NCBI GenBank assembly: GCA_021031555.1 | Contig: GCA_021031555.1_4954.1 | Origin: a phage | Strand: one strand, 5' to 3' | Length of the DNA stretch: 24,434 nucleotides | Shown: piece after piece, positions 3,700-5,174 of the stretch | How positions within the stretch are numbered: the first letter of the stretch is position 1 | Layout: every line of letters starts with the position of its first letter | Position numbers and translations under genes: made by a program | Notes under the pieces: generated by a model | What the model saw: the letters and a program-made list of their open reading frames with translations, nothing else | The model's database searches: none | What the model was told of the DNA's origin: nothing

Positions 3700-4053
3700 A
3701 TGCGTAATTCATATGATCCGTCACTGAAATATGTTTTCACCCGTCCGATGCTGTGGAACGGTAAACAGATGTCCGCTGGCGATAAAGTATCAACATCAAA
3801 AGCTACCCCGGCTGTTTTAAATGCCCTTGTGCGTATGCGCCACATTGAACCAGCTACTGCGACCGTTGAAGAACCAGTGATTATAGCAAACGAAGAATCG
3901 GCATCAACCACTGCGGCTGAAATCCGACGTGACGCGCCAAAAACCTATAACGTTTATGTTATGGGTATGCCGATGAATTCAGAATCGTTTAGTAGTAAAA
4001 GTGCCGCTGCTGAATGGTGTGAATCTCAAGGCTTGACATATAACTATTCTTGA
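3700..4053 (+). CDS. hypothetical protein
   Basis: ATG 3700 with GAGG 9 nt upstream. The ORF-track start at 3646 would read through the terminator hairpin, so it is rejected. 117 aa. Confidence 0.6.
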   Translation: MRNSYDPSLKYVFTRPMLWNGKQMSAGDKVSTSKATPAVLNALVRMRHIEPATATVEEPVIIANEESASTTAAEIRRDAPKTYNVYVMGMPMNSESFSSKSAAAEWCESQGLTYNYS

Positions 4054-4061
4054 CCTATTGT
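4033..4061 (+). promoter_or_regulatory. candidate sigma70-type promoter
   Basis: -35 TTGACA (4033-4038), 17-bp spacer, -10 TATTGT (4056-4061). Lies at the 3' end of the preceding CDS and points into the non-coding region. Confidence 0.35.
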
Positions 4062-4256
4062 TAGTTGTAGATAGTTTTCGTGGCGACTTTGCGGACTTTT
4101 TAGAAACTGACCACAAAGATAAATGCAAACGAAGAACGTTTTCTGATGGCGGCGTAATAGCCTGTAAGTCAGCAAGGTCTTCCGATTCCTTGTAAATAAA
4201 TTCGGCGCACTGGCCCGGTGTGATTAATAATGGGCACACAACAGGTAAGAGCATTG

Positions 4257-4302
4257 CGCGCCTGACGAGTCCATGAGGGACGAAACGCATTAGCGTCGCG
4301 CG
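4257..4302 (+). ncRNA. type I hammerhead self-cleaving ribozyme motif
   Basis: Read directly from sequence. Stem I 4257-4261 (CGCGC) pairs with 4298-4302 (GCGCG). Core CUGACGA at 4262-4268. Stem II GUCC/GGAC (4269-4272 / 4278-4281), loop AUGAG. GAA at 4282-4284. Stem III ACGC/GCGU (4285-4288 / 4293-4296), loop AUUA. C17 at 4297, giving a GUC cleavage triplet with the predicted cut between 4297 and 4298. Confidence 0.7.
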
Positions 4303-4509
4303 GAGTATCCCCAGCCGGGGAATAACTGGATACCAGGGGAGTCAACCCTAAGCGCATTTACGAGTGTGTTTAGGGCGTGGGTCGGCAATGACTCCCTGTG
4401 CAGCCGACATCTGGCCCGGCAACATACAGTGCTCTTATCGTTGTGGTGAATTGCAGTTCTCAGAAACAACCAGAAGATAAGCGCCTGGCACTGCAACCAA
4501 ACACTCGCT

Positions 4510-4530
4510 GATAAGGAGGTGATCCTTATC
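4510..4530 (+). promoter_or_regulatory. hairpin carrying a 13-nt perfect anti-16S (extended Shine-Dalgarno) sequence
   Basis: TAAGGAGGTGATC (4512-4524) is the exact reverse complement of the 16S rRNA 3' end. It sits in an 8-bp inverted repeat GATAAGGA / TCCTTATC with loop GGTGA. A TTG at 4531 opens a 17-codon ORF. Confidence 0.4.
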
Positions 4531-4698
4531 TTGCTGGCGGGAAAGCCGCAAATCGTGGGTAAAGCATGTTGTGAAACATCCTGAACTGCGTGTCGTTTTA
4601 CATAACTGGTTATTCACGTGTCACGCATAGGGGTATGTTGGGACGTCAGGTGTGGATGACCAGTTATGTAAAACCCTCATTATCACCCAGAGCCATTT

Positions 4699-4724
4699 GC
4701 CGTCTGTTTAAGACGGCTTTTTTT
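4699..4724 (+). terminator. rho-independent terminator
   Basis: Stem GCCGTCT / AGACGGC (7 bp), loop GTTTA, followed by TTTTTTT. Confidence 0.75.
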
Positions 4725-4763
4725 CGTGCTAATATAACGAAAACATTTCTCACAGGTGATCAC

Positions 4764-5174
4764 ATGGCTATTACAGTTGAAGGTATTCGTTATTTGATCA
4801 GTGTCCCTGATGTTACTGATGAACAAATTCAGTGGTACATTGACAACGGTTATACAAATCCTCTCAGTATTTGCGTCGCTCTCTGTGATTATATGGCGTC
4901 TATTGCCAGCAACGATACTGATATTAAAGTAGGTCCGATCTCACTCAGTAGTAGTCAGTCAGCAGACGCCTGGAATAAACTTAAAAAAGATTTTATTTTA
5001 CGTATTAATACTGGCGCTGATTCAGGTGGCGGTTTGTTAGGTAGTTTTATGGGTGTTGGTGGAGCTACTTTAACTGGCGCTGGTATGCAACCTGCTATTC
5101 AACGTGGTCAGTTCGACAACCCACCTGTAACACTTGAAAGCGGTAGTCATGCACTTAATGAGGGTGAACGGTAA
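4764..5174 (+). CDS. putative head-tail joining / head completion protein
   Basis: ATG 4764 with AGGTGA upstream. The ORF-track start at 4590 would read through the terminator, so it is rejected. 136 aa. Function by position only. Confidence 0.6.
   Translation: MAITVEGIRYLISVPDVTDEQIQWYIDNGYTNPLSICVALCDYMASIASNDTDIKVGPISLSSSQSADAWNKLKKDFILRINTGADSGGGLLGSFMGVGGATLTGAGMQPAIQRGQFDNPPVTLESGSHALNEGER

Follow-up and report, generated by a model that had tools for sequence, protein, structure and literature searches.

The DNA analysed here, referred to as the window, is a stretch of 24,434 nucleotides (nt) from a 9NA-like siphophage (contig GCA_021031555.1_4954.1 of assembly GCA_021031555.1), whose near-identical relatives are Sashavirus BDX09P1 and Escherichia phage PJ16. 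Its plus strand carries a full copy of a structured and conserved RNA motif of about 90 nt that is found across phages and prophages of Enterobacterales, and that begins with a long complement to the single-stranded 3' tail of 16S ribosomal RNA (rRNA). We put at about even the chance that this motif works through docking on the 16S tail and not through a peptide. An earlier sequence-only reading of the window had singled out the complement, a hairpin embedding it and a short open reading frame (ORF) behind it, and had offered two alternatives: a structurally gated ribosome-binding site for a micro-peptide, or a ribosome-binding or sponge element within a ribozyme-processed RNA. The features of the motif copy in the window are as follows:

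4505–4594, plus strand: full copy of the conserved phage RNA motif (covariance model R1, all 88 positions, 55.5 bits)
4510–4530, plus strand: clade-specific masking hairpin with a stem of 8 base pairs (bp) and loop GGUGA (fold −10.2 kcal/mol)
4512–4524, plus strand: 13-nt perfect complement to the single-stranded 16S rRNA 3' tail (duplex −22.1 kcal/mol)
4531–4584, plus strand: TTG-initiated 17-codon frame MLAGKPQIVGKACCETS (TTG 4531–4533, TGA 4582–4584)
4537–4549, plus strand: hairpin P2, GCGG / loop GAAAG / CCGC (RNAalifold on alignment A1)
4554–4590, plus strand: long irregular hairpin P1/P1b/P3, with compensatory changes in all 9 pairs
4554–4558 with 4586–4590, plus strand: P1, part of the long hairpin
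4563–4564 with 4581–4582, plus strand: P1b, part of the long hairpin
4566–4570 with 4575–4579, plus strand: P3, capped by the GNRA loop GUGA (4571–4574)

A conserved RNA motif with covarying hairpins

The motif is composed, in this order, of the 16S-tail complement, a gap of 3–5 nt, the sequence (A)UCUUGCUG, hairpin P2 and a GNRA-loop hairpin of about 37 nt; the window copy has each of these parts, with AUCUUGCUG as its conserved sequence and P1/P1b/P3 as its long hairpin. Covariance model R1, which was built from 104 sequences with the clade of this phage left out, matched the window at this one place (E 1.6e-14). The structure was obtained with RNAalifold on a MAFFT alignment of 105 sequences (A1), and the window coordinates of the long hairpin were taken from the model alignment of 9NA. 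Compensatory changes occur in 10 of the 13 predicted pairs of P2 and the long hairpin, including the outer pair of P2 (A–U in 83 sequences, G–C in 17); the three other P2 pairs carry no information because the search pattern fixed them. Paired cells made up 93.8% of the alignment as against 76.9% in shuffles, none of which reached the observed value (0/500), and 25–46% in controls with slid partners. A compensatory change is also seen inside the clade of this phage, where AUGUU/AACAU has become ACGUU/AACGU in 9NA. The hairpins of the motif are real RNA structure, and the functional RNA strand is plus, as is shown by the G–U pairs that prevail at one position of P1 (73 sequences).

The block from the complement to about position 4594 is near-identical in phages Sasha, AVIO78A, PJ16, 9NA and SP069 and about 90% identical in Carvaje-like Klebsiella phages, while weaker BLAST matches were found in Jedunavirus and Peatvirus myophages, whose copy lies on the strand opposite the baseplate genes as its own promoter-to-terminator unit. 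When IMG/VR was scanned with an exact pattern for the hairpin region, at least 120 contigs were returned, almost all of them true copies, and a second scan anchored further downstream again returned at least 120, nearly all true. More than 130 distinct contexts were recovered, none of them annotated; the hosts named in GenBank records are Klebsiella, Salmonella, Escherichia, Yersinia, Cronobacter, Hafnia, Pectobacterium, Proteus and Citrobacter. The main type of the motif was present in 6 of 5,426 complete E. coli genomes searched by BLAST, unannotated in all six, whereas the window version had no match in the same set. A GTDB scan (596 Gb) with a 17-base pattern, which was too short, gave one recognised true copy among the at least 120 loci listed. 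Rfam 15 had nothing over 4505–4594, either at gathering score or at E values up to 10, and no Rfam family was found for a main-type copy (L024:7500-7760) or for 13 related loci.

Complementarity to the 16S tail and the short reading frame

The perfect complement described in the sequence-only reading was borne out. TAAGGAGGTGATC at 4512–4524 is the single match in the window and has no mismatches to the tail, which we take to be G1530–A1542, GAUCACCUCCUUA, in Enterobacteria; all 13 tail nt are thereby complemented. An exact 13-mer is expected about 7e-4 times by chance in 2 × 24.4 kb, and shuffles gave a mean of 0.34 matches even with up to two mismatches allowed. C4525 could form a 14th pair with G1529; that base, however, closes helix 45. 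The claim that the complement goes far beyond an ordinary Shine–Dalgarno (SD) element likewise stands: the predicted duplex of −22.1 kcal/mol compares with −1.5 to −13.3 kcal/mol at 15 gene starts of the window, and random 45-mers (n=3000) gave a median of −5.0 and a 0.1% quantile of −15.2 kcal/mol.

The site is partly hidden in the window copy. The inverted repeat GATAAGGA (4510–4517) / TCCTTATC (4523–4530) is complementary at 8/8 positions, as had been noted, and in the predicted fold its 5-nt loop, GGUGA, leaves the central 5 nt of the complement exposed. After opening of its own structure the net energy of pairing is −6.0 kcal/mol (window genes −0.7 to −8.7), so that the site is long yet masked. 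Of the structural gating proposed earlier, the masking is thus supported, but the 8-bp hairpin is a property of this clade and not a general feature: it is absent from the Klebsiella and Jedunavirus versions. The masking partner is the downstream arm TCCTTATC in this phage, an upstream GCGAAUCAC in the Klebsiella phages and an upstream ACCCC in many prophages.

Conservation of the 13-mer among relatives, the check suggested by the sequence-only reading, was found, GGAGGTG[A/G]TC being kept in 9NA, SP069, Sashavirus, the Carvaje-like Klebsiella phages and Jedunavirus/Peatvirus. The duplex energy with the 16S tail, computed for 83 distinct upstream variants, has a median of −18.4 kcal/mol, with values between −13.2 and −22.1 kcal/mol for true family members. 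In alignments A1 and A2 the conservation of the core GGTG[A/G]TC is 90% or higher; as RNA, GGUG[A/G]UC and (A)UCUUGCUG, both lying 5' of the hairpins, are nearly invariant. Around the core the subtypes differ (AAGGA-U-GGUGAUC, UAAGG-C-GGUGAUC, UAAGGAGGUGAUC, UAAG-U-GAGGUGGUC, AAGGAG-A-GUGAUC and GGAGGU-U-GAUC), with a single bulge or mismatch shifting its place while both halves of the complement stay. Two clade-wide core substitutions recur, GAUC to GGUC and GAUC to GAUU, and both still pair as G–U wobbles, opposite U1532 and G1530 respectively; core changes that break the pairing are restricted to isolated sequences or very small subclades (Sasha-type GACC). No column within the motif was found to covary with the core. 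Because the bulge moves, the wobbles are kept, internal covariation was not found and the masking varies, the pattern points to a fixed outside partner with the sequence GAUCACCUCCUUA, for which the 16S tail would be the obvious candidate. The distance from the end of the duplex to the UUG is 3–5 nt in 76/83 variants. GGAGG lies 10–11 nt from the UUG, as against an SD spacing optimum of about 5–9 nt, so that initiation would be possible though not favoured.

The frame that follows is present as the sequence-only reading gave it, from the TTG at 4531 through 17 codons to the TGA at 4582–4584. Its length varies among contexts (n=132): 6 codons in 113 (the usual frame, TTG CTG ACG GGT AAG CCG TAA), 9 in four, 12 in three and 17 in 12. 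The 17-codon version is found only in the clade of this phage, where the compensatory change of the P2 outer pair from A–U to G–C turns TAA into CAA. Substitutions in the frame within this clade mostly change the amino acid (I/T/S, C/R, S/F, T/I), for example at codon 8 (ATC/ACC/AGC), codon 13 (TGT/CGT) and codon 17 (TCC/TTC), while the silent ones either fall within the loop of P2 or re-establish a pair of P3. When copies were retrieved through P2, which leaves the upstream sequence unbiased, the start was TTG in 111, TGG in nine, CGG in one and TTTG in one of the 122; the TTG has thus given way to TGG or CGG in at least three sublineages that are intact in all other respects. The 17-codon frame is probably not a functional gene. 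Given the unconserved length, the lost starts and the mostly amino-acid-altering changes, a micro-peptide is unlikely to be the selected product of the motif, and the proposal of a ribosome-binding site serving such a peptide is not sustained; the ribosome-binding element, with its conserved tail complement, appears the better fit of the two alternatives.

Transcript, genomic contexts and neighbouring RNA modules

In the window the motif lies in a stretch of 711 nt (4054–4764) with no credible gene, flanked by a small gene that follows the major capsid gene and by the first head-tail gene (ATG 4764). Two signals bracket it:

4033–4061, plus strand: sigma-70-like promoter TTGACA-17-TATTGT (consensus match; predicted transcript start at about 4068)
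4699–4724, plus strand: intrinsic terminator of the non-coding transcript (annotated as a terminator in the Sasha record)

The same promoter site is annotated as a promoter in phage AVIO78A, which has an equivalent stem and T-run at the terminator position. Since promoter and terminator enclose a gene-free stretch, it is most simply read as a single non-coding plus-strand transcript of about 650 nt. ORF calls in database records run across this region and through the terminator (4590–5174, plus, and 4435–4617, minus, in the window; L002 2432–2869, minus; L003 2730–3248; L004 1572–2117), namely PJ16_048 on the minus strand and the extended starts of AVIO78A_052 and 9NA gp42; the head-tail gene has its conserved start at the ATG at 4764, with CAGGTGA just before it. 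These ORF calls are probably annotation artefacts, and in phage records the motif and its adjoining RNA modules are at present either unannotated or covered by spurious ORF calls. ARAGORN reported no transfer RNA (tRNA) or transfer-messenger RNA (tmRNA) in the window, and in the relatives solely tRNA-Ser, tRNA-Asn and tRNA-Thr.

Two kinds of context were seen. In prophages the typical position is the late operon, past the lysis genes and ahead of the terminase genes, and in 84/132 contexts an ORF of at least 40 amino acids begins no more than about 40 nt after the motif. The ORFs downstream belong to unrelated families (phrog_6581, DUF2560, Tad2-like, Rha-like, HNH endonuclease), which argues for a portable element acting in cis; as judged from these neighbours, the motif marks accessory-gene slots in prophage late operons. 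The ORF immediately behind the motif in one IMG/VR contig (L062) gave a match to PF11195, the Tad2-like domain of Thoeris anti-defence (E 3.9e-14). In this phage and its relatives, the motif is a module in an array of non-coding RNAs running from promoter to terminator. The Carvaje-like Klebsiella phages have tRNA-Ser(GCU) directly 5' of the motif (L006 1392–1479, L007 1173–1260, L016 7224–7311), and the intergenic site between capsid and head-tail genes thus serves this phage group as a general depot of RNA genes.

The first module of the transcript (4069–4256) resembles the tag region of tmRNA, with sub-threshold Rfam scores for tmRNA_permuted (27.8 bits) and beta_tmRNA (23.5 bits). It contains AUAAAU followed by a tag frame at 4125–4154, GCA AAC GAA GAA CGU UUU CUG AUG GCG GCG, and the stops UAA UAG (4155–4160); the translation is ANEERFLMAA. 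An IMG/VR scan recovered 19 distinct tag sequences, almost all 10 residues long and fitting the pattern AN[DE][DEN]xx[LA]xAA, and because such varied peptides keep one length and pattern, the tag frame shows a coding-type constraint and appears to be read. ARAGORN found no tmRNA in this module, and no convincing tRNA-like domain was identified. The segment is common to many of 239 matched phage records (mainly Salmonella, Klebsiella and Escherichia), mostly unannotated, and in 13 loci it precedes the motif on the same strand. Of the objects in this region, it may be the more surprising one. In Sasha the first module of the array is a different one (L001, about 2405–2440), whose string GGTCGAAAG fits the GNCGAA(N)G motif of the 5' region of bacterial Y RNA (YrlA) and adjoins a stem-enclosed module; no Rfam YrlA match was obtained for the Sasha or stem-enclosed modules, and the likeness may be a coincidence.

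A stem of about 19 bp (4236–4255 with 4428–4447; CACAACAGGTAAGAGCATTG / CAGTGCTCTTATCGTTGTG, one bulged A) encloses 4257–4426, which comprises a hammerhead (4257–4303) and a structured region. The same arms hold unrelated inserts in Sasha, AVIO78A, PJ16, phage C1, P1 (after trnT), EhYP and Carvaje, those of P1 and Carvaje having the T-arm-like GGGTTCGA(A/G)TCCC, so this stem looks like a cassette holder for RNA cargo. The hammerhead matches the Rfam type I model at 24.7 bits against a gathering score of 34; as cargo it was found only in the window, in Sashavirus BDX09P1 and in the motif-free T7-like Enterobacter phage EhYP, and it is missing from PJ16, Sasha, AVIO78A, 9NA, the Carvaje-like phages, Jedunavirus and the inspected prophage copies. 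Hammerhead and motif are not co-inherited, and the link to a ribozyme-processed RNA drawn in the sequence-only reading is incidental. About 62 nt at 4428–4490 are 82–87% identical to a stretch in phages P1, P7, D6 and SJ46, which in P1 belongs to the ban operon, about 70 nt past tRNA-Thr and on the other strand than plp; a stem at this stretch, GTTGTGGTG / CACCACAAC (CACTGCAAC in the window), encloses variable cargo in relatives. Downstream of the motif, 4596–4673 forms a long near-perfect hairpin (TTTTACATAACTGGT / ACCAGTTATGTAAAA, with an internal ATAGGGGTATGTTGGGAC) that is absent from 9NA, SP069 and the Carvaje-like phages; a similar TATAGGGGTATGCAGGGATTAC hairpin closes the RNA array of Escherichia phage C1.

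Proposed docking on the 16S tail and alternative explanations

As the best-supported reading, we infer that a 30S subunit would dock on the motif through the 16S tail at a site partly masked by local structure. In this phage pairing would be seeded at the exposed GGUGA loop, and the 8-bp stem would then be opened by strand invasion. Translating the short frame productively would not be the point. In cis, the docked subunit might form a roadblock that shields the RNA from 5'-end-dependent scanning by RNase E, or provide a standby pool of ribosomes for a downstream start; ribosome trapping might be a further outcome. That bound particles obstruct RNase E scanning is described in PMC9943677.

The closest known analogue is provided by the rreB and rreR small mRNAs of alpha-proteobacteria (Hahn et al. 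2016, PMC5711450). In them, as in the motif, a long complement covers the whole single-stranded tail and is partly buried in a hairpin that leaves a seed exposed; a tiny ORF that begins at a non-AUG codon is a further common feature. The rreB of Bradyrhizobium has a 17-nt SD sequence partly in a hairpin and a GTG start; it is translated weakly and sediments together with 30S subunits (PMC5711450). This strong association combined with weak translation is established for rreB only and is a prediction for the motif. There are further differences: no sequence relationship was seen; rreB and rreR lie on alpha-proteobacterial chromosomes, whereas the motif occurs in phages and prophages of Enterobacterales; their complement spans 16–17 nt as against 13 nt; their peptides are conserved, unlike the UUG-initiated short ORF of the motif; and two covarying hairpins and use as a portable leader or module are found in the motif alone. 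The HK022 put antiterminator (PMC9378689) is likewise a phage RNA of about 70–90 nt with two stem-loops that acts in cis on a host machine without needing a phage protein. That RNA binds RNA polymerase and sits just past the early promoters, unlike the motif, and no 16S-tail complement is mentioned for it in the passages of PMC9378689 consulted.

An ordinary SD site shares with the motif the complementarity to the anti-SD sequence, a possible downstream start and an open frame. The motif differs in its 13 nt of complement instead of 4–6, in the 11 nt that separate GGAGG from the start, and in a UUG that is lost in some lineages and a frame conserved neither in length nor in sequence. The STAB-SD element of Bacillus thuringiensis cryIIIA is a 5' mRNA stabiliser whose SD-like sequence does not start the downstream gene and is thought to hold a 30S subunit, protecting the RNA downstream. 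It is a Gram-positive element that blocks a 5'-to-3' exonuclease, where the corresponding threat in enterobacteria would be RNase E scanning, and it is short and bare, unlike the structured 90-nt motif. A literature search for phage RNAs with a long anti-SD complement, or for non-coding RNAs of 9NA or Sasha, found nothing specific.

Several observations weigh against docking as the function. The net predicted affinity is ordinary, both here and across the family (median −8.3 kcal/mol). The UUG is kept in most members and its spacing is constrained, which leaves room for some initiation. The conservation from UUG to P2 is partly circular because the search patterns fixed much of that stretch. 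One subtype (L047, L070 and relatives) has a hairpin of about 20 nt between complement and UUG. The array of 9NA, SP069 and the Carvaje-like phages has no further element between motif and terminator, and such copies fit a roadblock poorly since nothing downstream is left to protect.

That translation itself is the function, with the motif a mini-cistron acting as a leader ORF, as a Lys-Pro-stop minigene on which ribosomes stall or drop off, or as a ribosome-loading coupler, we consider rather unlikely. Such a mini-cistron would account for the SD-like element, the constrained spacing and the UUG of most members, for the six codons that most members share (MLTGKP-stop) and for the position of most copies just 5' of an ORF; moreover, proline ahead of a stop codon terminates poorly, and lambda has bar minigenes. 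Weak translation has been seen for rreB (PMC5711450). However, the mini-cistron does not sit well with the start lost to TGG or CGG, with the stop that moves from codon 7 to codon 18 through a stem-preserving change, or with the amino-acid-altering substitutions within the clade; the 10–11 nt from GGAGG to UUG and hairpin P2 from +7 are both poor for initiation, the mini-ORF ends about 55 nt short of the next start, no upstream ORF stop is consistent, and the six-codon sequence was largely set by the search pattern. Distinctly unlikely, in our judgement, is that the SD likeness is a by-product, the purine stretch being one strand of an internal helix or the site of another factor such as CsrA on A(N)GGA. 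In many subtypes the stretch could form a helix with nearby sequence, such as a C-rich segment lying upstream (ACCCC with GG(x)GGU); the main type has CAAGGAUGG here, similar to CsrA sites, and the net accessibility is modest. Yet the internal partner varies in sequence and register across subtypes and is sometimes missing, the nearly invariant core GGUGAUC is not part of that helix, the 16S complement retains its two halves on either side of variable bulges, and there is usually one GGA per motif.

Action in trans, by a terminator-ended small RNA that occupies the anti-SD of free 30S subunits and so damps or redirects host translation or traps ribosomes, seems improbable to us. It would suit the stand-alone promoter-to-terminator units of this phage, 9NA, the Carvaje-like phages and Jedunavirus, the Carvaje-like copy directly after a tRNA, whose processing would release the motif, and the tmRNA-like tag template that lies 355–670 nt upstream on the same strand in 7 loci, including the window. 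Most copies, however, are leaders of prophage genes and not free RNAs; the phage's own SD-dependent genes would be starved too; rreB was overproduced without effect on growth, ribosomes being far in excess (PMC5711450); and the ordinary net affinity counts here as well. An effect at the DNA level through the Dam site GATC of the conserved core, or a functional minus strand bearing the 16S tail sequence (GATCACCTCCTTA), is disfavoured and is the most remote of the explanations considered: whole clades have GGTC or GATT, by which the Dam site is gone while the RNA wobble pairing is kept, the G–U pairs of P1 in 73 sequences would become A–C mismatches on the minus strand, and promoter and terminator are both on the plus strand.

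A number of known devices were tried and rejected. HK022 put antiterminators showed no similarity by BLAST and have another location and another partner. A termination–reinitiation device was set aside because upstream ORF stops are absent in 68/119 contexts and scattered in the remainder. For a leader attenuator of the erm/cat type, the next SD of the main type (AAGAGGU) lies about 10 nt past P1, unpaired and outside the hairpin, and in the window no gene lies between motif and terminator. A ROSE-type thermometer (UUGCU opposite AGGA) would require a helix closing a 13-nt loop and had no Rfam ROSE match; programmed frameshifting (SD, spacer, CUU/UGA) lacks an upstream ORF that consistently enters, and the UGA is lost in this clade; and the likeness to boxA/boxB nut sites does not fit in order or sequence.

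A more specific suggestion, which we advance with little confidence, is that the motif is a portable structured phage RNA domain selected to tether to the 16S 3' tail without being translated, and may be part of a toolkit that traps ribosomes and redirects their rescue. The rescue role may be considered because, in Sasha-like, 9NA-like and Carvaje-like phages, the motif shares its transcript with the tmRNA-like template and tRNA-like modules. Such a domain would either load RNA cargo onto the ribosome or retain a ribosome on the RNA, and would have been placed before accessory and anti-defence genes or within arrays of non-coding RNAs. If docking of the 30S subunit is true, the motif would be a natural, portable ribosome handle used with very different cargo by phages of Salmonella, E. 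coli, Klebsiella, Yersinia and their relatives. It would then represent a class of post-transcriptional element that is new, and engineers of RNA stability or of ribosome loading would have a ready-made part in it; it would also give the orphan rreB/rreR a second, independent case in a genetically tractable host.

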